Virus record (IMG/VR): IMGVR_UViG_3300034105_001195
Coordinates: 1-64,000 of that record
DNA length: 64,000 bases
Origin: a virus
Reading direction: 5' to 3' (one strand)
Within the stretch, counting starts at the first letter, position 1. Each line of letters opens with the position of its first letter. This document shows positions 39,736 through 63,975 of this stretch, in pieces. Both the position numbers and the translations under genes were made by a program. The notes under the pieces were generated by a model. It saw only the letters and a list, made by a program, of their open reading frames with translations, had not been told where the DNA came from and did no database searches.

Positions 39736-41598
39736 TTACTCCCAAGAGGTGTATGCAGACCAAGCTGACGTGCTTGATCCTGTGGCTCTTGCTCTCCATC
39801 TAGCATAGCTATAAGTTGAGCTATTTCTTGTTACCGTTTTATTTCCGCCTCCATTAACTGAGCCTGATGATGATGCTGATACTGTGCTTCCATTAGAGCT
39901 AAGCTGTAGTTCCCAATCGTAGCCCGTAGGCGTTCCGCCAGTGCCTTGACTAATTGATAGCGTCCAAGTGTAATAGGAGCTAATATACCCATCATAGTTA
40001 TTTGAAACACCTGGAACCCCTGGAGCTGTAACTGGATTTGTAGACGGACCCTTTTCAATAGATGAGGCCTCGCTACTTGTTCCTGCAGAGTTAGACGCTG
40101 TTGCAAAAGCTTTAAAATAATATCCCGCATCTGCTGCAACTACATCATAACTTACTGAAGAAGAATAGCTCTGCGCCCGTGTTGTTTCATAGGAAGCAAC
40201 ATTCTGTGTTCCTCTTGTAATCTTAATAAAATACGATGTAGGTGATCCTGCCCACCCGCTTGTAGAAGCAGATAGAGTGTTTCCTGTTGATGCTGTACCC
40301 GAAAAGGATACGGTTCCTCCTGAAGGAATAACTACTGGCTGTGCTAGTGGTCCACCTTCTGTTCCTGGAGTAAATGTTCCACCATTTGATGTTCCTCCTG
40401 AATTTGTTGCAGTTGCAAAAACTCTATAGTAATATCTGCCACCTCCGTCGTAGTCGGATGCTGGAATAGTATAAGTTGCACTTGAGGATGTAGAAGATGC
40501 TACAAATGTTTCGTTTGTATTAACATTTGGTGTTCCTCTATATAGTCTCAAGTCATATGATGTTGGGCTATTACTCCAAGATCCAACTCCGTAAGTTAAT
40601 GTTTGTCCTACTGTATATCCTCCAGTTGGAGAAAGTGTGGGTGCAGATGTATTTACAGGAACTGGATTTGCTAATGATACTGTAGCGCTTGTTCTATACC
40701 CAGAATACTTTATTGTTGCTGCTACAGGTGTTGATGTTTGAACTCCATAACCCTGACTATTTGTTGATCTTGGGTATACTGTAAAATTTCTTGCGTTATC
40801 ATCTGGTGGGGTATATATGTAATTATTATTGGTGCCTGGTGACACATTTGTAAAATAATTACCATTTACATATATATCATATGAAATAGCACCTGCGGCA
40901 ACTGGCCAAGTTAAGTAAAGTTGTCTACTTGTATTAACACCTCTAATTGAAACGCTTGCATCGCCTGCTGTTCCTGTTCCAGAGAACTGCTTTGCTCCAG
41001 AATTTACTGAAGGAGTTCCTGCGGTTCCTCCGCCAACTGCTTCATAATAAGTAGATATATTGTCAAGTGTAGTAAAGCTTCCAGAATATGATAGACCTGT
41101 GTTTCCAATTGAAACTGAGCTTGGCGTATTAGGTGTTGCTGTGTTATCAAATGCGCTTAAGGATGTAACTTGTGGAAGCATAGTTATTCCAGTTGATATT
41201 GTTATTGGCGTTGATCCTCTTTGGTTTATTGCTGTTATTCTACATCCTATTATTATTTCTGCATCGGCAGCTACTGTTGTATATGTATTATTTGTTGCAC
41301 CAGATATATCTGATCCCGCCCTTGTCCACTGGTAAGAATAAGATGTTGGGTTGTATGCATCATTTGCATTCCATGAACCAACTGATGCGGTATAAACACA
41401 ACCAATTCTTCCCGCTGTTCCGCTTGTTGCAGATATAGAAGGAGATGCAGTATTTACTGGAAACTCTGGATAACTTATTGCCCAGTTTGCACCATTAAAA
41501 ATCCATGCTTGTTTTGCAGTAAGCCACTGCGCCCCATTATAAAGTTTTAATGATTTTTGATTGTACCAATTTGTGCCATCATATGCTTTTATAGTCAT
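39736..41598 (-). CDS. Ig/Fn3-repeat fibre/adhesin
   Basis: N-terminal (Y/F)xGxxW repeats; three PVNT..P...G...GSW...PTSY Ig-like units; Fn3-like end WSAYTSW. Confidence 0.7.
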   Translation of the reverse strand: MTIKAYDGTNWYNQKSLKLYNGAQWLTAKQAWIFNGANWAISYPEFPVNTASPSISATSGTAGRIGCVYTASVGSWNANDAYNPTSYSYQWTRAGSDISGATNNTYTTVAADAEIIIGCRITAINQRGSTPITISTGITMLPQVTSLSAFDNTATPNTPSSVSIGNTGLSYSGSFTTLDNISTYYEAVGGGTAGTPSVNSGAKQFSGTGTAGDASVSIRGVNTSRQLYLTWPVAAGAISYDIYVNGNYFTNVSPGTNNNYIYTPPDDNARNFTVYPRSTNSQGYGVQTSTPVAATIKYSGYRTSATVSLANPVPVNTSAPTLSPTGGYTVGQTLTYGVGSWSNSPTSYDLRLYRGTPNVNTNETFVASSTSSSATYTIPASDYDGGGRYYYRVFATATNSGGTSNGGTFTPGTEGGPLAQPVVIPSGGTVSFSGTASTGNTLSASTSGWAGSPTSYFIKITRGTQNVASYETTRAQSYSSSVSYDVVAADAGYYFKAFATASNSAGTSSEASSIEKGPSTNPVTAPGVPGVSNNYDGYISSYYTWTLSISQGTGGTPTGYDWELQLSSNGSTVSASSSGSVNGGGNKTVTRNSSTYSYARWRARATGSSTSAWSAYTSWE

Positions 41599-41606
41599 AT
41601 GTTATC

Positions 41607-42683
41607 CTAGTAGAAAATATATAAATCGCCAGCTGCAGTGCCAGTTGGTGGCGTTCCAGTTGTGTTATAGAATATTTTATTTGAGTTTGCTGTATTAGTT
41701 CCATTTGAATATGCAGTAGTTGCAAGATTTATATTTGCACCTAATGATACTGGTGAGTTGTTAATTGAGATTGATGAATTGGCAAGCATTGTATTTGTAA
41801 TCGATCCCGCCGAAGGAGTAAATGCTGGACCTTGTGGTCCAGTTGGACCAGCTGGTCCCTGTATTCCTTGAACACCCTGCGCTCCTTGTGAACCAGTAGC
41901 GCCAGTTAAACCTTGTATGCCCTGTGTGCCTTGTTCTCCAGTGTCGCCTTTAGGTCCTTGTATTCCTTGTGGACCTAAATTAGAAACTGTAATAGAACCA
42001 GCCATTGATGAGTGGTATTCGCAAGCATAATAAAGTTGAGGAGCATTAAATGGAACTTCAAATATAATTGTTCCATTATCCCGTGTTCCTGAAGATAGTG
42101 TTACTCCAGTAGAATAAACACTTCCTGCGCTATATGCACCTGAAACTGTTTGAATCCAAAATGGATGTCCGACAGCATTAACATTAATTATATATCTATG
42201 TCCCCGAATAAAAGATAAAGTTGGATTAGCAGAACCATTAATCGTATAAGATCCTGATCCTGAGTTTGTAACTGCTAATGTTATTCCGCCTGAAGGTCCT
42301 GTTGCGCCAGTTAGTCCTTGAATTCCTTGAATACCCTGAATACCTTGTGGGCCTTGCGGTCCTACAATTTGACCAGCAGATGTCCAATCTGAACCGCCCC
42401 ATATATAAAGGTCTCCATCTGCGTCAACAATTCTTGCATCATTTGCACTATTGCCAGTTGCTGGTAGTAGGGCAACGGTTGCTACTGATGCTTTAACATT
42501 AATAGATGTTCCTTGAGGTCCTATGGGGCCTGCAGGGCCTTGTGGGCCTACTTCTCCTTGTGGTCCTTGAGCGCCAGTTGCAATTCTTTGTAGGTTCCAG
42601 GCGATTCCATCCCAAATCCATGTGCTTCCGCCAGCGGTAAATGATTGATTTACTGTTGGGCTATTTGGAAAGTCTATTGCCAT
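41607..42683 (-). CDS. Collagen-like fibre with a cupredoxin-like domain
   Basis: IDFPNSP N-terminal module; G-X-Y repeats; GHPF...[12 protein letters not shown]. Confidence 0.75.
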
Positions 42684-42685
42684 TG

Positions 42686-42940
42686 TTATGCCCCTATCCC
42701 TGCTATTGCTCTTGCTTCATCTTCAGTTAATCCTAATGCCTCAAGCTTTGCAATAGCCGATACAACTAATTGATTTTTTTCATTTTTAATTTGATCTACC
42801 GTTTCAAATGCTGCTAAAAATTCTTGTTTAGTAAACCCAGGTGTTTCATCTTTCCATATAATATCTTCATATGTTGTTCCAGAGCTATAAAATTCTTTAT
42901 CTGAAGATAAGTAATGTAATACTTCATAATAAGTTGCCAT
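42686..42940 (-). CDS. Small fibre-assembly chaperone-like protein
   Basis: Likely start MATYYEV (TAATG coupling); C-terminal AKLEALGLTEDEA motif. Confidence 0.65.
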   Translation of the reverse strand: MATYYEVLHYLSSDKEFYSSGTTYEDIIWKDETPGFTKQEFLAAFETVDQIKNEKNQLVVSAIAKLEALGLTEDEARAIAGIGA

Positions 42941-43653
42941 TATGGTGTTACCTCCATCAATAACATTGTGCTTTCTCCATTTATCCACTGCATGTATATA
43001 AATCCATTTTGATCAACACCATTTGAATTACTAATTGATCTTTGGGCTTGAGTTTTATAAGTGACTGGCGATGTTGTTGCAGGAGTATCAATAAATACTC
43101 CGCCTACATCTGCAGAGGATGTACCTGTATCTCCTGTCCAAAGAGTGTTACCTCCAAAACTTCCTATTGAAGTTGAACCTCTAAGTACTGGGAACAATAA
43201 TCCAAAGTCTCCAGTCCCACTAAGTTTTCTTAACCCATTTTGATTTACAAAAATTACAATTTTATTTGATGCGGAAGTTGGAGTAATTGTAGCACTTAGC
43301 CCAGTATCAACAGCACTTGCGCCTATACTTGCTGTAACTATAATATTTGTTGAACCTCTAACTATTTGAACTACTTTCCCAAGTCCTTGCGCTCCTGTTG
43401 CACCCGTTAGTCCTTGTATGCCCTGAATTCCTTGAGGGCCCGTAGGTCCTGCTATACCCTGAATTCCTTGTGCGCCCGTTGGTCCTGCGGGACCTGTTAA
43501 TCCTTGAATGCCTTGGGGTCCTTGTGGACCTGTAGGTCCTGTTACGCCCGTTCTAACAACGTTCCACCGAGAACCATTCCATGTCCATGAGTTTGTTCCT
43601 ACAGTAAATACTTGATTTAATGTGGGGGAATTTGGAAAATCTATTGCTGCCAT
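42940..43653 (-). CDS. Collagen-like fibre with a C-terminal beta-sandwich tip
   Basis: IDFPNSP module; G-X-Y repeats; [12 protein letters not shown]...[12 protein letters not shown]...LMEV tip domain. Confidence 0.75.
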
Positions 43654-43655
43654 TG

Positions 43656-43787
43656 TTATTCCCCTATCTCTGTAACTACTCTAGCGTTGCATCTTGCTTC
43701 CGCTTCATTAATAGAATCAATTTCTTCTTGAGTTAAATCTCTTTCAACTAGTTGCTGTAACACAACATCGTATTCTGTTATTTTCAT
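43656..43787 (-). CDS. Small chaperone-like protein (43 aa)
   Basis: Read by hand: [43 protein letters not shown]; fills the gap exactly. Confidence 0.65.
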
Positions 43788-43788
43788 T

Positions 43789-45603
43789 TTATGATAGCCC
43801 CCATAGAGTCCAAGTTCCACCTGTCCAAGTTTCATTTACTACTTGAAAGTTTACTGAATTAATAGCTGAGGCTCCTGTATATGTACCAGCGCCTCTTACT
43901 GTAATCATTGTTTGAGTTGTTCCATACAAACTGCTTTGTCCTAATCCGCTAGAAATCAATTCCCAATGCTTTGTTCCAGTACTATTTGCATTTCTAATAT
44001 GGAATTTTCCAGAGTTGTATCTGAAAGTTGTTATAGGCTCTGGCGGATTTAGATATACTGAAGCACCAGCACTTCCTCCAAATACCCAATCTCCTCCGCC
44101 TGTATAATTATTATTGTCTCCGTTAACCTTAACAATCAACGAGTTTCCGAGAACTCCGTTGTTTGAAGTACATGTAAGTCCAGTCCACTCAAGAATTAAC
44201 TCTTTATATGCTCCCGCTAATCCTGTAAATGATGAAAAGAATCCTGAGCTTGATGTATAAGGAGTTCCAATTAAGCTCCAAGTTCCACCGCTTGCGCCTG
44301 CTGGACCTGCTGGACCTGCTGGTCCTTGTGGGCCTGCTTGAGAATTTCCAAATTCAATCCATGATGAGTCATAATAAATATATGTAAGTCCATCATCTGA
44401 GTTATACCAAGCTTGTCCTTCTACTGGATTTGCAGGAGGTGTTGTTGCTACTACTGAGAATGTTGCTTTTGATCCCGCCTCACCTTGTGGGCCTTGCGGG
44501 CCTTGTGGGCCCTGTGGACCAACGATCTGACCTGCAGAAGACCAAGATGAGCCATTCCAAATATAAAGGTCTCCATCTGCATCAACAATTCTTGCATCGT
44601 TTACAGTATTTCCTGTTGAAGGCAATGCTGCTACAGTTAAAGAAGATGCTTTAAGATTTATAGATACGCCTTGTGGTCCTTGAATTCCTTGTGGGCCTTG
44701 TGCACCTGTTGCGCCTGCGGGACCAGATAAAGATGATCCTGTTTCTACCCAATATGAATCATAGTATGTATAACTTCTGCCGTTATCTGAATTAAACCAC
44801 GCCTGTCCATTTACTGGACTTGCTGGTGGTGTTGAAGATGTAATAGAAAATGTTGCTTTAGATCCTTCTGGTCCCGTCGGTCCAGTTAAACCTTGCGGTC
44901 CCTGTGGACCTTGCGGTCCAGTTGCGCCTGTGATTCCTTGTGGACCCGTTGATCCTTGTGGACCCTGTGGGCCCTGTGCGCCTGTTTCACCAGTTAGTCC
45001 TTGTATGCCCTGTGGACCTTGCGGTCCTGTTGCACCTGTTGGTCCTGTTGCACCTGTTGGTCCTTGAATTGTTCCAACATTAATCCAGTTGCTACTTACC
45101 AAATCCCAAACATATAGGTTACCTGAGATTAAATATCCATCTCCAGCACTCCCAGTTGGTTGTGCTGCTTGTAATGCTGCAAGTGATGCATAAGAACCAA
45201 GTATCTGTACTCCAGTTCCAGTGTCACCTTTGTCGCCTTTAATTCCTTGAATACCTTGTGGGCCTTGTGCACCTGTTGCGCCAGTTGCGCCAGTTAAACC
45301 TGTTAATCCTTGTGGACCTTGAGGTCCTGTTGCGCCAGTAGATCCTGTTGGTCCTGCAACAGTACTTGCTGCACCTGTTTCACCTTGTGGTCCTTGCGGA
45401 CCTTGTGGTCCTGTTGCACCTGTAGGACCTTGTGGTCCTGTTGCACCTGTAGGGCCTTGTGCACCTGTTGCGCCAGTTGGGCCTGGATTGTTTGTTAAAT
45501 AATTATCTATATCTGTAGCTAAATAGCCAAGATCTCTTGGGACATCGGGCGACATGTCTAATGTCGGATATCTAAATGTTTTAGGCGTTGTATTTCCTGG
45601 CAT
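43789..45603 (-). CDS. Long collagen-like fibre (hub), probably leaderless
   Basis: TT..FRYP...[15 protein letters not shown] anchor; long GPQ/GPT/GAT repeats; two PxxPVxGQAW...YYD..W.E modules; TGGTATAAT ends 7 nt before the ATG. Confidence 0.8.
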
Positions 45604-45662
45604 TTTTAAATTATACCATTCTCAGGGTTATAAGCCTTTTAAAAGCTTACTATTTGAGCCTT

Positions 45663-45920
45663 TCATTGTCTATCTGGTTTTACATCCCAAGTAGCGTAAT
45701 GTTCTTTCCAGTTATCCGTCCCATAAAAGTCCATCTGAGATGAAATGAAATCATCGCCTTCTGGTAGTCTTTTTTGTGTGCGTGTTCCAGAAATCCCATA
45801 CCATCTAACGAGGGGGGAACTACAAGTATCACAGGTATAACCTGGATCTTCTTCTTTAATACTTCTAAAATGAGTATACTGAACTTTACACTCTTGGCAT
45901 TCATATTGATATGATGGCAT
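45663..45920 (-). CDS. FmdB-like zinc-ribbon protein
   Basis: MPSYQYECQEC...CDTC; own TGCTATAAT promoter at 45946-45954. Confidence 0.75.
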   Translation of the reverse strand: MPSYQYECQECKVQYTHFRSIKEEDPGYTCDTCSSPLVRWYGISGTRTQKRLPEGDDFISSQMDFYGTDNWKEHYATWDVKPDRQ

Positions 45921-45971: not shown

Positions 45972-47531
45972 CTAGAAGGTAATTGTTCCTGATCCCGCCG
46001 TAAACCGATAAACTCTATATCCTGAACGAGTTGGTTGATTATAAGTTAACGTTCCAGGAATTGTTGTAATGGCTGGGTATGTGTCTGGGTAAGCAATAAC
46101 TACTACACCAGATCCGCCTGAGCCTCCATTGCCACCGCCACCTGCACCGCTATTTCCTCCTGCGCCTCCGCCGCCGCCAGTGTTTGCTGTTCCTGGTGTA
46201 CCATTGGAAATTCCATTAGCTCCTGCGCCTCCGCCGCCAGAACCACCAGCGCCACTTGCTCCACCATAATTATTTTGTCCTGGTCCTCCTCCTCCAGCAT
46301 AAGTTAAAGATGAGCCCGTAATTGAATAGGATAAACCTGCGCCGCCTGCGCCGCCATTAGATCCACCTACTGCGCCAGCCCCTCCGCCTCCGCCGCCTGC
46401 ATATGGATTACCTTGGCCAGATCCTCCGCTATTACCTTGTCCTGAAGTTCCTGCTCCGCCGACACCTGGTAAAGGGCTACCGCCGCCTGCGCCGCCTCCG
46501 CCTGAACCACCAGATCCTCCTGCGGTTCCATCTTGACATTTTCCTGCTCCGCCACCAACGCTTATTAAGTTATCAAAAACTGAATTACTTCCATTTGAAC
46601 CATTTCTTAAAGGATTACTTGATCCACCATTACTTGCTCCAAGGCCACCGTTGCCACCATTACCAACTGTTACTAAGAATGACAAAGAACCAGCAACGCT
46701 TTTAGTTCCGTATAATAATCCTCCTGCACCGCCACCTCCTGAAGAACCGTCCCCTACTACTGCTCCTGCTGCACCGCCACCTCCAGCTACAACCAAGTAT
46801 TCAACTGTTGGGGTGATTGCTCTTGATATTATATTAAATGATCTTGGTATTATGTTAAGTCCATCTGATGCATTAACAGTAAACGAATACGTTGTATCAG
46901 TTGTTATTTCTGGCAGTGTTCCTGAAATTACTCCTGTTGAAGAATTTAAAGAAACGCCAGAAGGAAGTGTTGATCCACTTGCTAATGCATATGTTATAGT
47001 ATTAGAATCTGAGTCCGTTGCCGATAAAGCAGACAAGGTAATACTTACTTGCTCATTAAACGTACCTAAAGATCCGCTTGCTGTAACCCAGACTGGATTA
47101 GCATTTACATACAAAGCATCTGGAATTAATCCAAATAGATTTGAAGGGTTTGTAACCTTTATATCATAAGGCTCATACGCATTAGACAGGCCTGTAAATG
47201 TAGCAGTTAGTTGAACTAATGAATTAAATGTAGTTGAAGAAGCATTTATTTGTACTCCATTTGTGCCGATTGCGGTTGCATATGCACCGTTGACAAAGTT
47301 TGTTCCATAAATAGTAATTACACCTGAGTCTGTTGCTTCTGAATAATTTCCTGAAATAGAAGAAACTCCAGGAACTTCCTGAACAATATTTTCCCAATTC
47401 CCAGCAGCTGTATATAACTCTAGTCTCTGAGCTTCACCATTTGAGTACAATTGGCCAGTTCCTGGATTAGCAGGACGACCTGCATTATTTCCAAACGGAA
47501 TTCCTGAACCTGATGATTTCTTAATAGCCAT
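45972..47531 (-). CDS. Fibre tip with IPT/Ig domains and a glycine-rich adhesin domain
   Basis: Likely start MAIKKSS (TAATG); ITIYGTNF (IPT); LPSGVSLNSSTGVISGT (Ig); VEYLVVAGGG...GGSGVVVIAYP Gly-rich domain. Confidence 0.75.
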   Translation of the reverse strand: MAIKKSSGSGIPFGNNAGRPANPGTGQLYSNGEAQRLELYTAAGNWENIVQEVPGVSSISGNYSEATDSGVITIYGTNFVNGAYATAIGTNGVQINASSTTFNSLVQLTATFTGLSNAYEPYDIKVTNPSNLFGLIPDALYVNANPVWVTASGSLGTFNEQVSITLSALSATDSDSNTITYALASGSTLPSGVSLNSSTGVISGTLPEITTDTTYSFTVNASDGLNIIPRSFNIISRAITPTVEYLVVAGGGGAAGAVVGDGSSGGGGAGGLLYGTKSVAGSLSFLVTVGNGGNGGLGASNGGSSNPLRNGSNGSNSVFDNLISVGGGAGKCQDGTAGGSGGSGGGGAGGGSPLPGVGGAGTSGQGNSGGSGQGNPYAGGGGGGAGAVGGSNGGAGGAGLSYSITGSSLTYAGGGGPGQNNYGGASGAGGSGGGGAGANGISNGTPGTANTGGGGGAGGNSGAGGGGNGGSGGSGVVVIAYPDTYPAITTIPGTLTYNQPTRSGYRVYRFTAGSGTITF

Positions 47532-47935
47532 TATATGAAACTCCATCCTAGCGTTGTACCTGTATAAATTAATGTAGTTACTGATTGATCTACGTCAATT
47601 ATAGCATCTTCTGTTAAACCATTGATCTTATTTCCATTACGGGATAAGGTAATATTATTTGTTCCCGCCGATCCTGTTGCATCAAATATAATAATTTCTT
47701 GCCCAAGTGTTGGGCTTGCAGGAAGTGTTAATGTTCTTGCTGCTGCTGTATCAACAAAATATCTGCGTCCCGCAACTAATGTTGTGTTTGCAGAAATTGC
47801 AAGATTTACCTCTTGCTTATATGAACCAAGGGCGGAATTAAGAGCTGCAGTATCTACATAGTCTCCAGGTAAAGCAGCTTGTACTCCAACATATTGCCAT
47901 GTTGTTCCATCCCATACTTTAATTACTTTAGCCAT
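47531..47935 (-). CDS. Fibre connector with a T4 gp34-N/gp9-10-like domain
   Basis: IKVWDGTTW N-terminus; RYFVDT...TLTLPASPTLGQEI.IFD...RNGNKING...GW domain shared with the 52281 gene. Confidence 0.65.
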   Translation of the reverse strand: MAKVIKVWDGTTWQYVGVQAALPGDYVDTAALNSALGSYKQEVNLAISANTTLVAGRRYFVDTAAARTLTLPASPTLGQEIIIFDATGSAGTNNITLSRNGNKINGLTEDAIIDVDQSVTTLIYTGTTLGWSFI

Positions 47936-47937
47936 TA

Positions 47938-49488
47938 TTATGCAGTCTTTGTAACTGTGAAGTTATAGACTCTACCTCCCATTGCAGTTGCGGATGAACC
48001 ATCATATACATTCCATACAAGTCTTACCGTTTGTGGTGATGCTAGTGTAAATGTTCCAGTTTTTGTAATTTGGGTATTTCTAGCATCTGGTGGTCTAACA
48101 GTATTTACTATTAATGATTTAGCTGTTGGAGTTACCGCCCAGAGTGGCATACCGTCATGTGAATCTCCACCACCATCCCAGTATAAGTAATGTGATCCAG
48201 AATAGCTATATGTTCCAGCTGCCAATGGATTTCCATTATTCAAAGTATAGCCAAATCCTGCAGTTCCTCCAGCACCTGCACTCTGATTTCCTCCATAGTA
48301 GTCACCCTGATTTGAGCAAGTCCACTGGAATGATCCTGTTGTTGTTACACTGCTGTCTCCAGAATTTGTCCATTGAGCAGACTCGTTTGTATACCCTGCA
48401 CCACCAGTAACTGTTTGACCAGTGTATGTCGGTGTAACTGAATTAGATGCAGAAGATGGCTGGGAAGTTCCAACTGAGTTTGTTGCAGTAACCGTAAATG
48501 TGTAAGACGTTCCAGCTGAAAGACCAGAAACAGTTATGCTTCCAGAGCCAGATTGACTAAGTGTTCCAGTTAAACCTCCTGGAGATGATGTCGCAGTATA
48601 AGATGTAATTGTTTGTCCACCATTACTTGAAGGAGCAGTAAATGGGACTGTTGTGGTATTTCCAGATATAGTTACTGTTCCAATTGTTGGTGCTGTAGGT
48701 ACTGAGAATATATTAACCACAGTATTAAAAGATCTAGTTGAGGTATTTACTCCATCTGAAGCGGTGATATCAAAAGAGTATGTCGTTGACGATGCTACAT
48801 CTGGAGATGTTCCAGTAAGAGCTCCAGTTGAAGAATTAAGACTCATCCAAGATGGCAAGTTAGTAGAAGAATATACGATAGATGTTCCGTCTGGATCTGT
48901 AGCAGAAATTGATGTATTCAATGAAGACTGTTCATATATTGTAGCAATTGTTCCAGCTGCTGTATTCCATGTTGGCGTTCCACCAGAATCTAAAGAATTT
49001 TCTAATATAGCAAACTGATTATCGCTATTAATTAGCTTAACGTCATAAGGTTCATAGGCCACTGGCAAATTTGGTGTTGTTGCAGTTGCAGTTGTGGCAC
49101 CTACAAATGTTGCTAGCGGAGAATTATATGCTACAGAATTTGTTCCTATAAACTGAACTGCAAGTCCTGATTTATAATTGGATCCAGTAATTGTAATAAC
49201 AGTCCCTGTTGTAGCTGCAGTTAGTGGAGATATGCTAGCAATTTGTGGTGCAGGATCTTGTGATACCTTTTCCCATCCTGTAAATCTATAAGCAATTAGT
49301 GCATTTAATGTTGTGTCAAAGTATAAGTCGCCTATTGATGGTGATGCAGGTCTATTTTCTGTTGTCCCACGACCAACGTGACCATTTGATGCGGTTGCAT
49401 GTCCAGAAATTGCAGCGGTAACCTCAGCATCAGTAGCAATAGCTGTGTTTGCTGATAGTATATTTGCTATATCTCTAGATTTAGACAT
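47938..49488 (-). CDS. Fibre protein with IPT, Ig and Fn3 domains
   Basis: MSKSRDIA start; ITITGSNY; LPSWMSLNSSTGALTG; GLSAGTSYTFTVTATN. Confidence 0.75.
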   Translation of the reverse strand: MSKSRDIANILSANTAIATDAEVTAAISGHATASNGHVGRGTTENRPASPSIGDLYFDTTLNALIAYRFTGWEKVSQDPAPQIASISPLTAATTGTVITITGSNYKSGLAVQFIGTNSVAYNSPLATFVGATTATATTPNLPVAYEPYDVKLINSDNQFAILENSLDSGGTPTWNTAAGTIATIYEQSSLNTSISATDPDGTSIVYSSTNLPSWMSLNSSTGALTGTSPDVASSTTYSFDITASDGVNTSTRSFNTVVNIFSVPTAPTIGTVTISGNTTTVPFTAPSSNGGQTITSYTATSSPGGLTGTLSQSGSGSITVSGLSAGTSYTFTVTATNSVGTSQPSSASNSVTPTYTGQTVTGGAGYTNESAQWTNSGDSSVTTTGSFQWTCSNQGDYYGGNQSAGAGGTAGFGYTLNNGNPLAAGTYSYSGSHYLYWDGGGDSHDGMPLWAVTPTAKSLIVNTVRPPDARNTQITKTGTFTLASPQTVRLVWNVYDGSSATAMGGRVYNFTVTKTA

Positions 49489-49726
49489 TATCTATTGGCT
49501 TCTCCAAATTAAAATACTCATATGCTTGATCTTCTGAATCAAACCAGCGCCATCCATCAACTGGATATTCATAGGTATCCTTTTCGTCTCTGTATAGGGC
49601 ATAGTCTTGGTTTAATACATAGAGTCTACCACAGACTACCATGTTTTCATTTTCTACTCTGTAGAACCCGTCGGTTTTTTCGTGGTATCCCTCTTCAGGA
49701 ATAACTTCATTATGTCTATATATCAT
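49481..49726 (-). CDS. Small protein coupled to the LRR fibre
   Basis: Likely start MIYRHNEV (ATGA overlap); YEYPVDGWRWFDSE motif. Confidence 0.65.
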   Translation of the reverse strand: MIYRHNEVIPEEGYHEKTDGFYRVENENMVVCGRLYVLNQDYALYRDEKDTYEYPVDGWRWFDSEDQAYEYFNLEKPIDNV

Positions 49727-54164: not shown

Positions 54165-54253
54165 ATCTCTCCTATTATACCCCAAATGGGTTCCTGAATT
54201 AGTTACTCTTCCCTTAGTATATCACTAGACAGCTTAGTGGCAGGATCTAATTA

Positions 54254-54550
54254 CTACTGTAGTACAAAACCAAAATGCTTTAGTAAGAAGGTAGCTGCTA
54301 GGGCTGACCAGATTAGATTAAACCAAATTAGGGTAGGTAAAGTTTTAACTGTAGATGACCAGATTAAAGCAAGGCTGGTAACTAAAGCAATAATGTAGAC
54401 CCACCAGATGCTAACTCCAAAAAGGAGGCCTGGGATAATGATTAAGGCCTTTGTAATAAAAGCAAAAAACTCAACAGTATTAGGAAGATTCCAATACTTC
54501 CTGTGTCTCATTGTTCCTAGGGCGTACAACCATTCTTTTCTAAATGTCAT
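54254..54550 (-). CDS. Small multi-pass membrane protein
   Basis: About three hydrophobic helices; TAATG-coupled to the halogenase. Confidence 0.7.
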   Translation of the reverse strand: MTFRKEWLYALGTMRHRKYWNLPNTVEFFAFITKALIIIPGLLFGVSIWWVYIIALVTSLALIWSSTVKTLPTLIWFNLIWSALAATFLLKHFGFVLQ

Positions 54551-56233: not shown

Positions 56234-56238
56234 TGCTT

Positions 56239-56526
56239 TTATCTATTTGCCCAAACTTGAGAATCTTCATCCCATAACTTTGTAAGTGGGTCTGGATTTG
56301 GACCTACTGGAGAAACCCAGTTAAAATCTTCATCTAGTATCCAAGACTCGTATGGCTTTGGGTCAATGAATTTGGCATTCCCAAAATCATATGTTCCTCC
56401 TACTACTGCATTTCTAGTTTGTTCAGTTACTTTAATATTATACCCAGGCATATTAATTATTTCTGAGTCTGAACAAATAAATACATTAGAGACTAAATTA
56501 TTATCAATTCTTGCGTATCTTATCAT
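56239..56526 (-). CDS. Small fibre-associated protein (paralog of 60552..60839)
   Basis: Shared KPYESW.L..DF.W.SP.GPNP...WDE motif. Confidence 0.75.
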   Translation of the reverse strand: MIRYARIDNNLVSNVFICSDSEIINMPGYNIKVTEQTRNAVVGGTYDFGNAKFIDPKPYESWILDEDFNWVSPVGPNPDPLTKLWDEDSQVWANR

Positions 56527-57629
56527 GCTAAGTAATACCTCACAATCACTACACCATTGTTTCCTGGGGAACCAATTTGTCCTGCGCTGTTAGCGTGTCC
56601 ATTTGTTGTACTTTGTCCACCAGCACCAAAGAAACCATTTGTGGAAAATGGGCCAACTCCATTGTCTGGGTCTGCTCCTGCTCCACCTTGACCATAATTT
56701 TGAGCAGTTCCAGTTATTGAAGATGAGTAACCTGCTCCAGCGTTTCCGCCGCCGCCGTTTCCTCCATTTGAACCATTTCCTGCTGCTCCGCCTCCGCCGC
56801 CGCCTCTTCTATTACTTCCAGTGTCATTTGCTCCAGAACCACCTGAGTAGCCTCCAGAAAAAACGGGTGAATACAATGTTCCTAAACCTGTTGAAGATGT
56901 TTGGGTTACACCAGTAGCTCCGCCACCTCCGCCTCCAGCGCCACCTCCGCCTCCGTTACCACCAACACCAGATACGGCGGTTCTTGTGTTCCAAGAACCT
57001 CCACCACCGCCACCTAGTGCATAAACGTTACCAAAGTATGATGTTCCGCCAGCGTATCCAGAACTATTTGTTCCACTTGCAGCACCACCGCTACCAACTG
57101 TTACACCAGTTGCTCCTGCAACTGGGACTCCAGAAAGAAATATTACATTGCCGCCTCCGCCACCTCCGCCTCCGCCGTGAGTTCCTCCGTGACCTGCTCC
57201 TGCAGAGCCGCCGCCGCCAACTATTAGAACATCTGCAATTGGCATAGCTACATTAGGTAGAATAAAATTTCCTGATGCGTTAATAATTGCTGGAACTGTT
57301 GTGAATGCAGCAAAAGGATTTGCAAACGCAGTTGTCTGTTTGACCGCCACTTTACTTAAAGAAATATAATCTCCTGCTGGAGCAACAATATTAATGCTAG
57401 TAAATGCATGCGGAACATTAATAACTTTATTTAAGTACCCGCCAGTTGTAGCTCCAGAACTTACAAAATATACATATCCGCTACCTTTAGTGTTAGAATC
57501 AACTATATAATTGCCTGCAGCACCTGCTTGAGCCCATGATCTGTTATATGTCTCCATACGAATTGATGCAATATAATCAAATCCTGGAGTTCCTCCACCA
57601 CCTGATGGTGTAAATGATTGAATTCCCAT
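56523..57629 (-). CDS. Glycine-rich adhesin (paralog of 60836..61960)
   Basis: METYNRSWAQ N-domain; VLIVGGGG...GVVIVRY polyglycine domain. Confidence 0.75.
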   Translation of the reverse strand: MGIQSFTPSGGGGTPGFDYIASIRMETYNRSWAQAGAAGNYIVDSNTKGSGYVYFVSSGATTGGYLNKVINVPHAFTSINIVAPAGDYISLSKVAVKQTTAFANPFAAFTTVPAIINASGNFILPNVAMPIADVLIVGGGGSAGAGHGGTHGGGGGGGGGNVIFLSGVPVAGATGVTVGSGGAASGTNSSGYAGGTSYFGNVYALGGGGGGSWNTRTAVSGVGGNGGGGGAGGGGGGATGVTQTSSTGLGTLYSPVFSGGYSGGSGANDTGSNRRGGGGGGAAGNGSNGGNGGGGNAGAGYSSSITGTAQNYGQGGAGADPDNGVGPFSTNGFFGAGGQSTTNGHANSAGQIGSPGNNGVVIVRYYLA

Positions 57630-57961
57630 TATACGTCGATCTCCACTCCGTAAGCATTAAATGTTACAAGCCCTGATGATGACTGAACTGTAATAACATC
57701 ATTTGTATCTAGTGTGATTCCTAGATTTAGCGCTACGCTTAGGTTTGATCCAACTTGTACATCATATGCAATGTAGTGATCTGTTGTTAATGTTGCGCCA
57801 TCTGGGCGAACTGAAATCCGATATGTAGCAGAGTTAGCATCTCTATTAGCAACTGTAATACAATTGATAATGGCCTGCTTTGATCCGCTTACTGTATATA
57901 AATTAAAATCTGTTGTTGCTGCTGGTGACTTTTGTCCCAGAATCTTGTATACCATTGCCAT
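57629..57961 (-). CDS. ~110-aa beta-sandwich adaptor (paralog of 61960 and 62894 genes)
   Basis: YKILGQ...LYTV...ITVAN...FNAYGVE. Confidence 0.75.
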   Translation of the reverse strand: MAMVYKILGQKSPAATTDFNLYTVSGSKQAIINCITVANRDANSATYRISVRPDGATLTTDHYIAYDVQVGSNLSVALNLGITLDTNDVITVQSSSGLVTFNAYGVEIDV

Positions 57962-57965
57962 ATTT

Positions 57966-58331
57966 TTATACCCCTACCATAAAGAATGAGTGTAATGATG
58001 CTCCTGCACCGCTTACCTGATTTATTGCTGAAATTCTTGCTGTACTGATATCAGCTAAAGCAGTTGCTCTATCTAATCCAATGTCTGCTAGTGATGCTAC
58101 TCTTGCTGTTTCTAGAGATGCCGCCGATGTAGATCTTTTTGTTTCTAGTTCCGTAATTTTAGCTGCAGTTGCGGCGACAATATCATCGACACCTAACATA
58201 TTTGCTAGCTCGGTCATAGCTTTAGCAAGATAAATCATATCTTGTGTTGTTGTTGCAGAGTTCGTCATTGAAGTCATCTTCGTCTTCATTGCGTTGATCT
58301 GAGTTGCTAGGCTATCATAAACTACGGTCAT
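57966..58331 (-). CDS. Helical fibre-stem protein (paralog of 62297..62665)
   Basis: SLAT.I...QD..YLA...MLGV.DIV; hydrophobic C-terminus FFMVGV; TGATATACT promoter at 58350-58358. Confidence 0.75.
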   Translation of the reverse strand: MTVVYDSLATQINAMKTKMTSMTNSATTTQDMIYLAKAMTELANMLGVDDIVAATAAKITELETKRSTSAASLETARVASLADIGLDRATALADISTARISAINQVSGAGASLHSFFMVGV

Positions 58332-58367
58332 TTGTTATCTCCTTGATAAAGTATATCATATGTTCTT

Positions 58368-58937
58368 TTATATTCCTAGGTCCAATTCTAGGCTTACTAT
58401 ACGGGCATCAAAGCTGGCTACCTGAGAAGATAATGTTCCTAAAGAGTTTGTAACTGTTGTAGAAAAATTAGCATCATCTCCTAGAGCCGCCGCCAACTCA
58501 TTTAAAGTATTTAAAGCTGTTGGGGCTGAGTCAACTAAATTAGCAAGCTGAGATAGAGGGACAAGGCCATTTGCGTCAAGTGTCGCTAGTCCGTCTGGAT
58601 TGCCTACCAGGGTGTCTGGCACGTATGTCTGAGCGGCGGTAGAAGCAAGACCACTAACTGCTGTATCTACATATGTCTTTGTTGCAAGAGCAGTAGTATC
58701 GGCAATTCCATGAATATTTGTAGTGGCATTATTATGTGTTGTAATTGCTGAAGTTAAATCAGTTGCTAGAACGTTTGCAAATACTAGAGCAGAAAATGTT
58801 GCTACGCCATTACCTATCTTAAACTTATTAAGAGTTGTATCAATGCCAATTTCACCAGCTTGTAAGACTGGATTATATAGAGCCCAATTTGCCGTGGTGT
58901 CTCTGCGAAGTCTAAATGTTACATTTGTAGTTGTCAT
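58368..58937 (-). CDS. Fibre protein with an Mtd-N/hyaluronate-lyase-N-like domain
   Basis: RLRRDTTANW..NPVLQAGEIG.DT...FKIGNG; APTALNTLNELAAALGDDANF repeat. Confidence 0.78.
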   Translation of the reverse strand: MTTTNVTFRLRRDTTANWALYNPVLQAGEIGIDTTLNKFKIGNGVATFSALVFANVLATDLTSAITTHNNATTNIHGIADTTALATKTYVDTAVSGLASTAAQTYVPDTLVGNPDGLATLDANGLVPLSQLANLVDSAPTALNTLNELAAALGDDANFSTTVTNSLGTLSSQVASFDARIVSLELDLGI

Positions 58938-59140
58938 GCGGGATTAGCGTCTCCTCCATCATAACTTACTCCAGCTGCCGCTCCAGTTGAAACTACCGCA
59001 CCATCATATGAATGAAGGTGATCAAATACTACTGCTGGATCTGTAAACAATGCCCATTTAGCACCATCCCATTTCCAACGAATTCCGTTGCTTGTGAATG
59101 TTTGATTTAATGTTGGGCTTAGGGGGAATATGGTAGCCAT
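58934..59140 (-). CDS. Small connector (IFPxSP module + DGG tail), probably leaderless
   Basis: MATIFPLSPTLNQTFT...WKWDGAKW; ends YDGGDANPA; GGGTATAAT ends 7 nt before the ATG. Confidence 0.7.
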   Translation of the reverse strand: MATIFPLSPTLNQTFTSNGIRWKWDGAKWALFTDPAVVFDHLHSYDGAVVSTGAAAGVSYDGGDANPA

Positions 59141-59147
59141 ATTAGTA

Positions 59148-60539: not shown

Positions 60540-60551
60540 TTTTTACTCCTT

Positions 60552-60839
60552 TTATCTATCTGTCCAGCTTAAAGTGCTCTCATCCCAAAATTTTGCAATT
60601 GGATTTGGATTTGGGCCTTCAGGAGATTCCCAAATAAAGTCTGAGTTTAAAACCCATGACTCGTAAGGCTTTGCTGATAAAAACTTGTTTATCTCTGCGT
60701 CGTATGTCATACCAATAGCGGCAACAGATGTGTCTTCTGTAACTTTTACAAAGAACTCTGAAATAGAGTTTATCTTGTCGTCGTCACAAATAATTATATT
60801 TTCAACTTTATTATTATTTAATATTGCATAAGTACTCAT
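60552..60839 (-). CDS. Small fibre-associated protein (paralog of 56239..56526)
   Basis: KPYESWVLNSDFIWESPEGPNP motif. Confidence 0.75.
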   Translation of the reverse strand: MSTYAILNNNKVENIIICDDDKINSISEFFVKVTEDTSVAAIGMTYDAEINKFLSAKPYESWVLNSDFIWESPEGPNPNPIAKFWDESTLSWTDR

Positions 60840-61960
60840 ATTGTAAATGACCTCACAACTACTACCCCATTTGTTCCACCAAGACCAAGTGTACTTGATG
60901 TTGGGTGTCCGTTTGATGTTCCTTGACCACCAGAGCCATAGTGAACAGAATATCCATTATATCCAGAAACCCCATGTGATCCATTTGGAGTAGATCCATA
61001 TCCGCCTCCGCCATACATTGCTGTTTGTCCTGAAAGAGTTGAAACAAATCCAGCTCCACCCCGACCGTCGTTTCCAGCTGTACCGTCGCCAACTGCTCCG
61101 CCGCCGCCTCCGCCTCTTGAGCCAGTTGAGTTTCCAGAGTGACCCTGACCTCCAGATCTTCCTCCTTCAAAACCTAAAGAGCCAGAAACATCTAATCCCA
61201 TAGAAGCTGTTTGAACAACTCCACCAGGATTTGTTGGAGCGCTTGCGCCTGCACAACCTCCTCCAGAGTTTCCTCCAGATCTTCCTGCACGATTATTCCA
61301 GCCTCCGCCGCCTCCGCCGCCTAGTGCAAAAATGTTTCCGAAATAAGTTTTTGCTCCATCAAACCCAGGCTCAACTGCTGCAGGATTTGCTGAAGCGCCT
61401 GCGCCAATCTGAACTGATGTTGGTGAAGCACCATTCATTCCATAAAGCATAACGACATTGCCTCCGCCTCCGCCTCCGCCTCCGCCGTGGGCATCTCCAT
61501 GACCTGCTCCTGAGCCTCCGCCTCCGCCAACTAGAATAACATTGACGAGATCTAGAGCTCCTGTAGGTCTAGTATAAGAACCAGAAGTTGTAATAATTTG
61601 TGGTGTTGCAGTAACTGCTGTTGAATAAGGATAAGAAGGAAGGCCAGCAGAAAAAACTGATGTCGGCTTTACTTTTATCTTAAAAAGTGAAACTAAATCT
61701 CCAGTTGCAGAAACTATATTAATACTAGTAAAAGAATGTGCTACGTTAACCATTTTATTAAGTGGAACACCTGTTGTTGTTGATCCAACAAAATATGCGT
61801 AACCAGTTTCTTGATTTGATGAATACACTCCGTAGTATCCCGCTGTACCACCTTGTGCCCAAGTTCTATTAAATGTCTCCATATATATGGATCCAACAAA
61901 TGTCATATTTGGCATTCCGCCGCCGCCGCCTGATGCGGGAACTGTATTAAACCCTGGCAT
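60836..61960 (-). CDS. Glycine-rich adhesin (paralog of 56523..57629)
   Basis: METFNRTWAQ; VILVGGGG...GVVVVRS. Confidence 0.75.
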   Translation of the reverse strand: MPGFNTVPASGGGGGMPNMTFVGSIYMETFNRTWAQGGTAGYYGVYSSNQETGYAYFVGSTTTGVPLNKMVNVAHSFTSINIVSATGDLVSLFKIKVKPTSVFSAGLPSYPYSTAVTATPQIITTSGSYTRPTGALDLVNVILVGGGGGSGAGHGDAHGGGGGGGGGNVVMLYGMNGASPTSVQIGAGASANPAAVEPGFDGAKTYFGNIFALGGGGGGGWNNRAGRSGGNSGGGCAGASAPTNPGGVVQTASMGLDVSGSLGFEGGRSGGQGHSGNSTGSRGGGGGGAVGDGTAGNDGRGGAGFVSTLSGQTAMYGGGGYGSTPNGSHGVSGYNGYSVHYGSGGQGTSNGHPTSSTLGLGGTNGVVVVRSFTI

Positions 61961-62295
61961 TATGCATCTACCTCCGAACCAAATAGATTAAACGCTATTG
62001 CTGTTGATGCTCCATAAACTTCTACGATATCTCCTGTACCTAGGGTCATTGAAAGTTGAAGGGCTTGTGATACTCCGCCAGCTGCTGCTGTATCATATAC
62101 AAGAATTTGCTTGTTGTCTGCGGCTGCTCCTGCTACTCTTACTCTTACTCTATATAGAATATCGTCTGATGTAAGGTTAGCTACTGTTAGTGATGAACAG
62201 ATAGCCTGCTTTCCTGAAGGAACAGCGTAAATCTGTGTGTATGTTGCGTTTGCTGATGGAACTACTTGTCCCAGTACCTTGTAATTAATTGCCAT
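61960..62295 (-). CDS. ~110-aa beta-sandwich adaptor
   Basis: YKVLGQ...IYAVP...LTVAN...FNLFGSE. Confidence 0.75.
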   Translation of the reverse strand: MAINYKVLGQVVPSANATYTQIYAVPSGKQAICSSLTVANLTSDDILYRVRVRVAGAAADNKQILVYDTAAAGGVSQALQLSMTLGTGDIVEVYGASTAIAFNLFGSEVDA

Positions 62296-62296
62296 T

Positions 62297-62665
62297 TTAT
62301 ATCATGCTCCCTATGAATAGTACGTTAAAACTTGTTGACGCTGAATTTATTTGATTCATTGTCGTTGTACCTAATGTTGTAATATTGCTAATTGCTGTTG
62401 CTCTTTCTGCTACTACGTCTGCCACCGCTCCGACTCGTGCAGTTTCCATCGATGCAAGAGAGGCAACTTTCTTTGTTTCAAGATCTGCAATTTTATCTGC
62501 AGTTGCTGTAACAATGTCATTTACGCCAAGCATTCCACCTAATGTGTCTAATGCTGATGCTAAATAAACTAAATCCTGTGCGCTATAAGTTGTGTGACCA
62601 ATTGATGCTGCAATCTCAGATTTAATAGCGGTAATTTCTGTGGCTAACGAGGTATAGTCTGGCAT
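62297..62665 (-). CDS. Helical fibre-stem protein (paralog of 57966..58331)
   Basis: Aligns by eye over its full length; hydrophobic C-terminus LFIGSMI. Confidence 0.75.
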   Translation of the reverse strand: MPDYTSLATEITAIKSEIAASIGHTTYSAQDLVYLASALDTLGGMLGVNDIVTATADKIADLETKKVASLASMETARVGAVADVVAERATAISNITTLGTTTMNQINSASTSFNVLFIGSMI

Positions 62666-62666
62666 T

Positions 62667-62894
62667 TTACATTGTCTCCATTCTGTTCATCCTTAAAGCC
62701 ATAGCAACTTTTTCATAAGTTTTCTGCCAACCGCTTTTGGTGTATTGCTCAAGTGTATCATGAGTTGTATTAAAATACAGGTCTCCAATACTAGCATTTT
62801 GTGGTCTTTCTTGTACTGTGCCTACTGGTATTGTTGCTCCCCCGCCCCCGCCTGCGAGAGCTACTGATGCTGAAGCTGCTTTACGAATTCCCAT
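62667..62894 (-). CDS. Small connector protein
   Basis: MGIRK...GGGGG; RPQNASIGDLYFNTT...GW module; helical tail. Confidence 0.7.
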   Translation of the reverse strand: MGIRKAASASVALAGGGGGATIPVGTVQERPQNASIGDLYFNTTHDTLEQYTKSGWQKTYEKVAMALRMNRMETM

Positions 62895-63193
62895 TAAAGT
62901 TCTACCCCCGATATGTGAAAGTTTACAGAAGTTGAAGATGCAAAACCTTTTATAGTTTGCGTGGTAGAAAGAACTGTCTTGGTATCCATAACAAGGGTAT
63001 CGTTTGCGCCAACTGTTACTCCAGAAAGGTATGCAACGTCATTAAATAAAATTGAGGCGGTAATTGCTACAGCAGTTGTATTGGTAATTGAAATATTAGT
63101 TACTATATTAGTCTTGCTTGCTGGAACAGTATATAGCGTTGCTGAGGAAGTGGCTGCTGCTGCCCTTACAAATTGTTTTGCTACATTTGCCAT
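62894..63193 (-). CDS. ~100-aa beta-sandwich adaptor (third paralog)
   Basis: TLYTVP...ISITN...NFHISGVEL; AGGAGA RBS. Confidence 0.75.
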   Translation of the reverse strand: MANVAKQFVRAAAATSSATLYTVPASKTNIVTNISITNTTAVAITASILFNDVAYLSGVTVGANDTLVMDTKTVLSTTQTIKGFASSTSVNFHISGVEL

Positions 63194-63201
63194 ATTATCT
63201 C

Positions 63202-63975
63202 CTAGTACGCTCCCATTATTATACCAATTTCTGTGTCATAAACAGAGTTTGTGATATTAGTAATAAAATTAGCATCGTCGCCTACGGCTGCTGCTAATTC
63301 ATTTAGGGTATTCAGCACTGCTGGAGCCCCATCAATTATATTTCCTAGCTGGGAGATAGGAACATTTCCAGTTGCATCTAGCGTTGCTATTCCATCTGGG
63401 TTACCGACCAAAGAATCTGGCACATAAGTTTCTGCGGCGGTTGAGGAGAGCGCTGAGACTGCATTATCTACATATGTCTGAGATGCAATTAATGCGGTAT
63501 TTACTGATATTGCTTTTGTAGTTGTATTGTAAGAAAGACCTGATCCTACTGCATTTCCAACGGCATCTTTTGCATTTGTATCGGTATAAGGGTTTACCCA
63601 TGTAACTGCATAGTCTGCGTTTGAAGATTTAGCTGCAATCTGACCAGTGGTTCCGCCTGCTGCTACTCCTGGACCAACAGGTCCGACGGGGCCAAAAGAT
63701 ATTTCTACCCAGAATGTTCCATCATAAGTATAGAAGTGAGGATCAACGTTGTTGTACCAAAGATCACCCTCTTTAGGAGAAGGTGTTGTTGGTGCTGTAG
63801 TTCCTATTGATACCGCAGATCCTGATGAACCTGCTCCAACTTCAATCCAACCAGTATTAGTATAAACTCTTACTTTGTTAGTAACGCTATTTAAATATAG
63901 GTCACCGATTCTTGGATTTGCTGGGTCAGTCGCTAAACTGACTGTATTTAAGGAGACTAATCTTTTTACAGACAT
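63202..63975 (-). CDS. Multi-module fibre hub protein
   Basis: GDLYLN..GW and GDLWYN...YDGTFWVE modules; GGTTGQ..AK; APAVLNTLNELAAA repeat; hydrophobic C-terminus IIMGAY. Confidence 0.78.
   Translation of the reverse strand: MSVKRLVSLNTVSLATDPANPRIGDLYLNSVTNKVRVYTNTGWIEVGAGSSGSAVSIGTTAPTTPSPKEGDLWYNNVDPHFYTYDGTFWVEISFGPVGPVGPGVAAGGTTGQIAAKSSNADYAVTWVNPYTDTNAKDAVGNAVGSGLSYNTTTKAISVNTALIASQTYVDNAVSALSSTAAETYVPDSLVGNPDGIATLDATGNVPISQLGNIIDGAPAVLNTLNELAAAVGDDANFITNITNSVYDTEIGIIMGAY

Follow-up and report, generated by a model that had tools for sequence, protein, structure and literature searches.

Recurring connector modules in the fibre gene island of an uncultured lake phage suggest fibres joined tail to head from many short proteins

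The viral contig IMGVR_UViG_3300034105_001195 of IMG/VR (83353 bases, completeness rating 68%), the first 64 kb of which are analyzed here and are referred to as the window, carries an island of about thirty fibre genes whose ends contain a few recurring connector pieces. The reading that we favor, with a probability of roughly 60%, is that these are the fibre genes of an uncultured siphovirus-like lake phage and that its fibres consist of many short proteins joined tail to head, in gene order, by a small number of junction types. The window also encodes a portal, a head protease, a capsid-type protein, tail proteins and a DNA polymerase, as well as a 2736-amino acid (aa) open reading frame (ORF) with the position and size of a tape measure. 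From position 39736 to the end of the window, the real genes all lie on the minus strand, and the island runs on beyond it with three further fibre-type genes, to approximately position 66420. All-against-all BLAST revealed that the island proteins are a mosaic of paralogous modules.

Five types of junction are proposed. At the first (three occurrences here), a jelly-roll protein of ~110 aa would take up the hydrophobic-Gly tail of a stalk and carry the next protein, which starts with an M-x-I-(R/K/Q) leader. At the second (two occurrences), a C-terminal XD1-type domain would carry a tip protein with the same kind of leader, and at the third (one occurrence), a small protein with a DGG tail would be joined to the Mtd_N-type protein that follows. 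The fourth would involve a module of ~35 aa in three forms, namely an N-terminal 'plug', a form just behind the leader and an internal 'socket', whose internal copies may dock N-terminal copies sideways and thus produce branches. At the fifth, one module is split, with its first half closing g41607 and its second half opening g39736.

Three of the pairings listed at the first pass exceed chance by far when tested in contigs of other phages, many of them aquatic. Across these divergent contigs, particular C-terminal end types adjoin specific N-terminal start types, whatever the remaining sequence. In addition, the connector ends are 80-100% identical among relatives and the distal parts 0-40%, a pattern that, judged from sequence comparison, is the usual sign of tip exchange and may reflect it here. 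The first-pass annotation of the window had suggested a combinatorial assembly code in which socket modules recruit the N-terminal plugs of downstream proteins. The conserved adjacency of end and start types, the presence of the same pieces in other combinations and in fusions, and a correlation between module counts all agree with this suggestion, whereas its fixed socket role is uncertain and its 1:1 pairing is partly the result of duplication.

The strongest result of the analysis is the first junction, which involves the following genes:

g63202, 63202..63975, minus strand: 257 aa; N-proximal module at aa 18, internal-type module at aa 57, conserved fibre shaft motif, tail IIMGAY
g62894, 62894..63193, minus strand: 99 aa; jelly-roll adaptor paralog 1, 32% identity to g57629; phrog_1276, N-terminal part
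g62667, 62667..62894, minus strand: 75 aa, TAATG-coupled to the adaptor; M-G-I-R-K leader with Gly run, followed by a single N-proximal module and a short tail
g62297, 62297..62665, minus strand: 122-aa stalk with tail LFIGSMI; first gene of cassette copy A, 46% identity to g57966
g61960, 61960..62295, minus strand: 111 aa; jelly-roll adaptor paralog 2, 38% identity to g57629
g60836, 60836..61960, minus strand: 374-aa Gly-rich tip (Pfam Gly_rich_2); TAATG-coupled to the adaptor
g60552, 60552..60839, minus strand: 95 aa, after the tip gene; 48% identity to g56239; a ~100-aa gene has the same position in relatives; putative chaperone by position and size
g57966, 57966..58331, minus strand: 121-aa stalk ending in FFMVGV; opens cassette copy B
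g57629, 57629..57961, minus strand: 110 aa; jelly-roll adaptor paralog 3, the modelled copy
g56523, 56523..57629, minus strand: 368-aa Gly-rich tip, TAATG-coupled; 48% identity to g60836
g56239, 56239..56526, minus strand: 95 aa, after the tip gene; paralog of g60552

As reported at the first pass, three genes end in short hydrophobic tails (IIMGAY, LFIGSMI and FFMVGV), each followed by an adaptor paralog (g62894, g61960 and g57629, 32-38% identity) and then by a gene whose product starts with MGI or MPG..GGGG. The order of stalk tail, adaptor(s), tip and ~100-aa gene is kept in 8 mutually different loci out of 9 related ones, three of them with an adaptor identity of only 34-43%. A scan with an alignment of twelve family members yielded 80 more adaptor loci (45-97% identity) and hence 89 in total. 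Across these 89 loci, a tail pattern of four hydrophobic residues, Gly and a small residue ends 58 of the 60 distinct proteins upstream of the adaptor, compared to 55 of 813 other ORFs of the same loci (Fisher P 5e-56), and both proteins that miss the pattern have similar tails. These upstream proteins are otherwise unrelated, with lengths from 42 to 717 aa, some being collagen-like and some not. On the other side of the junction, the stop of the adaptor gene usually overlaps the next start, and the next protein tends to begin with M-(A/G)-(I/V)-x-(S/T/K/R). Hydrophobic tails followed by another beta protein, of ~120 aa, were also observed at two loci (L106 and L116).

The adaptor family has 1869 relatives at E<=1e-3 among 1.84 billion representatives. 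Most of the best 150 of these are stand-alone proteins of ~109 aa; approximately 19 have the domain twice in tandem, 12 are longer proteins with the adaptor as their N-terminal part and 4 have it at the C-terminal end. Among 16 family sequences inspected individually, several combine the adaptor with IPT, Ig-like and Gly-rich domains, which is the build of g45972 with the adaptor replacing its N-terminal part, and two consist of an adaptor and a Gly-rich domain, that is, gene pairs of the window in fused form. One relative of 141 aa has a hydrophobic stretch, a Gly run and the adaptor on a single chain. We infer that this phage encodes the proximal, stalk-capping domain of the tip protein separately, as the jelly-roll protein.

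The AlphaFold2 (AF2) model of g57629 is an eight-stranded jelly roll with a predicted local distance difference test score (pLDDT) of 96.4. Structure comparison returned generic jelly-roll matches only, without a specific family to name; they include plant satellite virus coats, a Bdellovibrio fibre end domain and nucleoplasmin-like cores, as well as a haloarchaeal virus turret and a phage cement protein (VIA Z 8-10). Among PDB sequences, the adaptor found no match, and g63202 matched by its short shaft motif only (9d93, a tail collar fibre, E 3e-5). A cultivated counterpart of the gene pair is provided by the Pontimonas phage phiPsal1, in which gene 020 ends in ..ALMLMGG and gene 021 is an adaptor, the pair being located after the tape measure and tail fibre genes; the record of gene 021 notes a match to a protein annotated (annotation only) as virion structural in pelagiphage HTVC010P.

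The second junction concerns a domain at the C-terminus of two proteins, each followed by a tip gene:

g52281, 52281..54185, minus strand: 634-aa fibre protein with a C-terminal XD1 (gp9/gp10/TSP4-like) domain
g49723, 49723..52281, minus strand: tip with five DUF285 stretches (Pfam E 4e-69); start at a TAATG overlap
g47531, 47531..47935, minus strand: 134 aa; short N-terminal hairpin motif and XD1-type domain
g45972, 45972..47531, minus strand: tip with M-A-I-K-K leader, N-proximal module, He_PIG and Gly_rich_2; start at a TAATG overlap

Both domains exist as first described (aa 514-631 of g52281 are 54% identical to g47531), and both junctions are TAATG overlaps. This coupling, cited in favor of the pairing, is not distinctive because TAATG occurs at 8 of the 33 junctions of the cluster, several others being ATGA overlaps. 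The label gp34-N-like has to be replaced: the domain is XD1/gp9-gp10-like, and the match to a long-tail-fibre proximal subunit is weak (g47531, E 0.11). A phmmer search aligned aa 45-132 of g47531 with aa 85-173 of the N-terminal part of tailspike TSP4 (TSP4-N) of phage CBA120 (7rej, 7rfo and 7rfv; E 1.2e-9), a segment that appears to fall in XD1 according to the linker positions in the accessible part of PMC8825819. The AF2 model of g47531 has a mean pLDDT of 75.4, with values >85 over most of the domain. In Foldseek, TSP4-N ranked first (7rfv, E 1.3e-8; 7rej_A, root-mean-square deviation 2.1 over 94 columns), followed by a Klebsiella phage baseplate protein and then, more weakly, by T4 gp9 (1qex, E 1.2e-3) and gp10 (5iv5, E 1.3e-3). 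The gathering score of the Pfam family T4_gp9_10_N was not reached (19.4 bits vs a cut-off of 25; E 1.2e-3), and no match to XD2 or XD3 turned up by sequence or fold, no separate search having been made in the other fibre proteins.

In a set of 58 viral loci, the XD1-type domain ends its protein in every ORF inspected, the carriers being either 117-168 aa or up to 2089 aa in length. In 57 of the 58 loci, a gene of >=60 aa comes next, either in overlap with the stop (35 loci) or with its start within 33 nucleotides (nt) of it (22 loci). An M-x-I-(R/K/Y) leader is found at 23 of the 35 distinct post-XD1 junctions, with an N-proximal module behind it in 22 of the 23, and another conserved start follows at the most distant junctions, where the carriers are long (~1010 aa). 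Starts similar to this leader are also seen in the proteins that follow the adaptor. By analogy, the arrangement of XD1-type domain plus tip may work like that of CBA120, G7C and T4 gp10.

Two further observations concern these domains. The small XD1-type proteins (47531-47935 in the window; loci L012-L052 elsewhere) all start with the hairpin motif M-A-K-x-I-(R/K)-V-W-x-G-T-x-W and usually follow a complete Gly-rich tip gene at a TAATG overlap, so that they stand between two tip genes. A metagenomic protein (P0014) has two jelly-roll adaptors, a collagen stretch and a C-terminal XD1-like domain, and the connector modules of the window therefore recombine with one another elsewhere.

The remaining junctions involve the genes listed below:

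g58934, 58934..59140, minus strand: 68 aa; N-terminal plug module and tail ..YDGGDANPA; ATGA overlap with the next gene
g58368, 58368..58937, minus strand: 189 aa; Mtd_N (Pfam PF18454, E 3e-13) and conserved shaft motif
g47938, 47938..49488, minus strand: 516 aa; N-proximal module, then Ig-like and fn3 domains
g43789, 43789..45603, minus strand: 604-aa collagen-like fibre; internal modules at aa 253 and aa 384, globular end
g42940, 42940..43653, minus strand: 237 aa; N-terminal plug module, collagen, globular end
small gene, 42686..42940, minus strand: TAATG-coupled to g42940; putative chaperone by position
g41607, 41607..42683, minus strand: 358 aa; N-terminal plug module, collagen; the C-terminus is the first half of a module (..GDLYIFY)
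g39736, 39736..41598, minus strand: 620 aa; the N-terminus is the second half of the module (..AYDGTNW), 8 nt past the stop of g41607

The module of the fourth junction is ~35 aa long, and no such module was detected outside the fibre island among the 738 stop-to-stop ORFs of the contig. Two copies of its strict socket form are present in g43789 (aa 253-295 and 384-426) and one in g63202 (aa 57-94), and plugs of the IDFPNSPT type start g42940, g41607 and g58934, in agreement with the first-pass annotation. The 3:3 count reported there did not survive: g63986, just past the end of the window, has an internal-type copy at aa 26, so that the whole cluster contains 4 modules of the internal type and 3 plugs. 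A related N-proximal variant is present in g63202 (aa 18), g62667, g47938 and g45972.

Plug and socket, which had been treated as two different parts, are instead positional variants of one module type. Residues 5-123 of g41607 align in register with residues 259-377 of g43789, the plug lying on the first socket, and an identity of ~60% continues through the collagen and a conserved domain. Hidden Markov models (HMMs) built from the window's sockets only or plugs only showed no cross-detection, and a profile-profile comparison of 76 socket with 95 plug instances was in register and weak (P 0.0029, probability 10.8%); the homology thus rests mainly on the g41607/g43789 alignment. Using subtype HMMs, three positional classes could be distinguished: the plug type starts at aa <=10 in 150 of 157 instances, the N-proximal type at aa 11-60 in 104 of 116, and the internal type, which is the one selected by the strict socket pattern, beyond aa 60 in 129 of 152. 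DUF2793 (PF10983) was considered as a family for the module and rejected, the match scoring 16.5 bits (cut-off 27) and covering aa 254-270 of g43789 only.

Searches for plug relatives gave 289 confirmed stretches, and 80 loci were kept. Module counts were compared in 35 non-redundant loci whose module-bearing genes are uncut, with proteins shuffled among loci as the null. The number of internal modules equals that of plug genes in 17 of the 35 loci (17 of the 25 with at least one internal module), compared to a permutation mean of 7.9 (standard deviation 2.4, P 0.0003), and the Spearman coefficient is 0.68; plug and socket counts, whose lack of correlation would have spoken against the proposed code according to the first-pass annotation, are thus correlated. 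This test supersedes one that used an ad hoc 'N-proximal' rule (15 of 34 loci equal, P 0.003). Recurring arrangements include one root, two sockets and two plug genes; a root, a plug-plus-socket gene and a plug gene; and a root, two plug-plus-socket genes and a plug gene. In four of the unequal loci, a gene is cut at the 5' edge.

A complex prediction for three copies each of g43789 aa 230-440 and g42940 aa 1-60, each with its own alignment and run without controls, scored 0.30/0.28 vs a mark of 0.32, a result that speaks neither in favor of binding nor against it. In cyanophage S-SCSM1, there are one internal module and one plug, both in annotated virion proteins; a ConA-like lectin, likewise annotated as a virion protein, is encoded just before the plug-bearing fibre gene (locus L232). 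A more ambitious reading is that the internal modules are true side-docking sites, that fibre trees from lake actinophage-like siphoviruses to marine cyanomyoviruses obey a counting rule (sockets = plug proteins), and that this rule and the tail/jelly-roll/leader junction make up a widespread readable code. We hold it tentatively, with the odds somewhat against it; if it were true, the architecture of a fibre apparatus would be predictable from the genome alone.

The third junction, noted at the first pass as a DGG tail before an Mtd-N-like gene, was confirmed: g58934 ends in ..YDGGDANPA, and aa 9-45 of g58368, the next gene, score above the gathering cut-off of Mtd_N (49.8 vs 26.3 bits). Close relatives have a plug protein of 68-88 aa in ATGA overlap with the Mtd_N gene. 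In distant lineages (L107-109, L129, L137-141), plug proteins with lengths of 96-120 aa have ..DGG..YGG.. tails, and the protein encoded next has an Mtd_N-like start; the pairing is therefore conserved. With regard to the fifth junction, the same split of a module between two genes as in g41607 and g39736 is found in L101. As for a further proposed pairing, that of helical stem paralogs with genes that have short helical tails, both tails are present, but a by-eye check found no shared motif and the order is conserved only in close relatives, which gives no sign of a pairing beyond chance.

The most serious alternative is that no docking code exists. The modules would then be folding or trimerisation units (nuclei for the register of collagen or beta shafts) or generic anchors, each fibre would attach alone, and the pairings would result from operon order and duplication. 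Such an explanation, which we consider unlikely, would fit the collagen repeats that usually stand directly behind plug and internal modules, and the in-register alignment of g41607 with g43789, which suggests a duplicated fibre unit starting with the module. It would also fit a duplication seen within the island, where 62297-61960-60836-60552 and 57966-57629-56523-56239 are diverged copies of one four-gene cassette (spans 62297-60552 and 57966-56239; gene-by-gene identities 46/38/48/48%). Two of the three cases of the first junction and both cases of the helical-tail pairing are therefore not independent, and the 1:1 pattern in the window is partly of common origin. However, equal socket and plug counts are not predicted by this explanation, and modules occur without collagen in g63202, g62667, g47938, g45972 and g58934. 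Also left unexplained are the common tail that otherwise unrelated proteins show only before a jelly-roll gene, the proteins of 68-134 aa with little beyond two connector ends (g58934, g62667 and g47531), and the adaptor fusions.

Besides the cassette duplication and the 4:3 count of the whole cluster, several other points weigh against fibres joined by dedicated connectors. Adjacent genes are to be expected in a structural operon anyway, and tight or overlapping junctions are the rule here. In CBA120, according to the accessible part of PMC8825819, it is XD2 and XD3 that bind partners, and XD1 is a spacer. Ten of the 35 loci have plug genes and no internal module in the locus, a point that also favors the absence of a code, and 8 more are unequal; three of the equal loci are trivially balanced, each protein holding one of each. 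Moreover, the loci are not phylogenetically independent and the evidence from them is statistical. In relatives with 64-76% identity to g43789, the second socket is missing and the only plug gene is one like g41607, and this loss of a socket together with a plug gene could be a single replacement of a contiguous DNA stretch. A fixed socket role is uncertain, since plug and socket are one type and the same type is N-terminal in proteins that follow the XD1 domain. All physical contacts are putative, as are the place of the fibres on the virion and the branching, which is suggested by the count statistics. The island (37517-66420 in contig coordinates) lies directly upstream of the portal gene and apart from the tail-tip genes at 11971-19974 (~12-20 kb), a position that would be compatible with attachment at the baseplate, neck or head alike.

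It is still less probable that the ~110-aa jelly-roll proteins are assembly chaperones or transient fibre-end caps and not structural links. They are small, located beside fibre genes and translationally coupled, and fibre chaperones of Alteromonas phages are described as transient caps in the accessible part of PMC10579305. However, the adaptor domain is N-terminal in long tip proteins of other phages, the usual chaperone position is occupied in each cassette by a separate gene of ~95 aa after the tip, and the record note on phiPsal1 gene 021 points, by annotation only, to a virion structural protein. Finally, the short genes could be remnants of longer fibre genes in decay, broken up by frameshifts or stops, and the module divided between g41607 and g39736 with 8 nt in between could be quoted for this idea. 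It is, however, very improbable considering that this split and these short genes are found again in divergent lineages, that most of the best 150 of 1869 adaptor representatives are stand-alone proteins of ~109 aa, and that all frames are open with proper start contexts.

Serial joining of short fibre proteins in gene order, the reading preferred here, has relatives among known systems. The long tail fibre of T4 consists of gp34-gp35-gp36-gp37 joined end to end, with consecutive genes encoding consecutive segments and small proteins serving as joints; apart from the weak match of g47531 to the proximal subunit (E 0.11), no homology to it was found. The first-pass annotation knew of no multi-connector code on this scale. 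According to the accessible part of PMC6872550, Latka et al. (2019) had already described a multi-connector grammar for Klebsiella phages, in which an anchor, a T4gp10-like docking domain and short conserved N-terminal peptides are re-used. Their set includes phages with five docking domains and four peptides, and the presence or absence of a docking domain tracks that of a second protein (PMC6872550, same part); docking was later tested experimentally, as stated in the portion of PMC13352976 that was available. Like that model, and like G7C gp66-gp63.1 and the K1-5 adapter gp37, the island re-uses standard units and has secondary proteins with conserved N-terminal peptides. Unlike it, the island has a hydrophobic tail/jelly-roll adaptor, a DGG/Mtd_N pair, a ~35-aa plug/internal module and a split module, for which the Klebsiella model offers no counterpart.

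The branched tailspike complex of CBA120 has been solved in part (PMC8825819, accessible portion). As in CBA120 TSP1-4 and T4 gp10-gp9, the N-terminus of one fibre protein would be carried by a trimeric beta domain of another, encoded by a neighboring gene, and g47531 and the g52281 C-terminus carry a homologue of TSP4 XD1, with the fold of the T4 gp9 middle domain and gp10 XD1 (PMC8825819, same portion). The differences are that only XD1 was matched here and the partner-binding XD2 and XD3 did not turn up; that the domain is located at the extreme C-terminus or forms its own protein of 117-168 aa, whereas TSP4 has it in its N-terminal region; and that we are apparently dealing with a siphovirus from a lake community and not with a myovirus of the Ackermannviridae. 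One fibre protein also carries another in the branched L-shaped fibres of the T5-like phages DT57C and DT571/2 (LtfA/LtfB; PMC4728585, part available) and in the hyperbranched fibres of the jumbo Klebsiella phage phiKp24 (10.1101/2022.03.15.484430, part available), where the connectors differ. Coliphages and Klebsiella phages had already provided examples of the general principle, and the case presented here is an extension, not a new concept. What is new are the connectors themselves, the length of the chain (six or seven gene products may stand in series at most), the counting relation, and the aquatic and probably actinobacterial setting. No description of the tail/jelly-roll junction or of the plug/internal module turned up in open-access papers and preprints, in searches that were not aimed at either.

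Fibre genes set the host range of uncultured aquatic phages, and most of them lack annotation. If the junctions are real, short unnamed genes (68-134 aa) could receive an annotation as connectors, the sequence would reveal how many fibre segments and tips there are and in which order, and the natural exchange points for tip recombination could be located. The first junction would be useful in this respect far beyond this contig, the hydrophobic tail and jelly-roll adaptor being very common in metagenomes.

With respect to domain content and surroundings, a search of the whole-island DNA against a phage collection gave no match. The gathering score of Gly_rich_2 (PF21722, cut-off 24.3 bits) was reached by g45972 (61.4 bits) and g60836 (32.6 bits), and g56523, though 48% identical to g60836, had no Gly_rich_2 match at E<=0.01. 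That of the Collagen repeat (PF01391, cut-off 27.2 bits) was reached by g43789 (91.9 bits), g41607 (56.0 bits) and g42940 (37.6 bits). A further end type (..LLMEVTP, ..ILMEIAG, ..LTLMEIAA) followed by a ~100-aa gene was observed at 42940-43653 with 42686-42940, and in loci L009 and L010; it may be another conserved pair, of fibre end and helper.

The island ends with a Laminin_G_3 (ConA-like lectin) protein at 37517-39322. A gene of the tryptophan-halogenase family (E 3e-109) and a membrane-like protein of 98 aa are located mid-island, between fibre cassettes (54254-56136), and relatives have a gene of ~530 aa in this position. Between both copies of the duplicated cassette lies a 463-aa protein (59148-60539) for which neither Pfam nor PHROG gave a match and which is kept at the same place in relatives. 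The only strongly AT-rich stretch of the island, with a GC content of 0.33 at 50-52 kb, contains g49723, which suggests that this tip was recently acquired.

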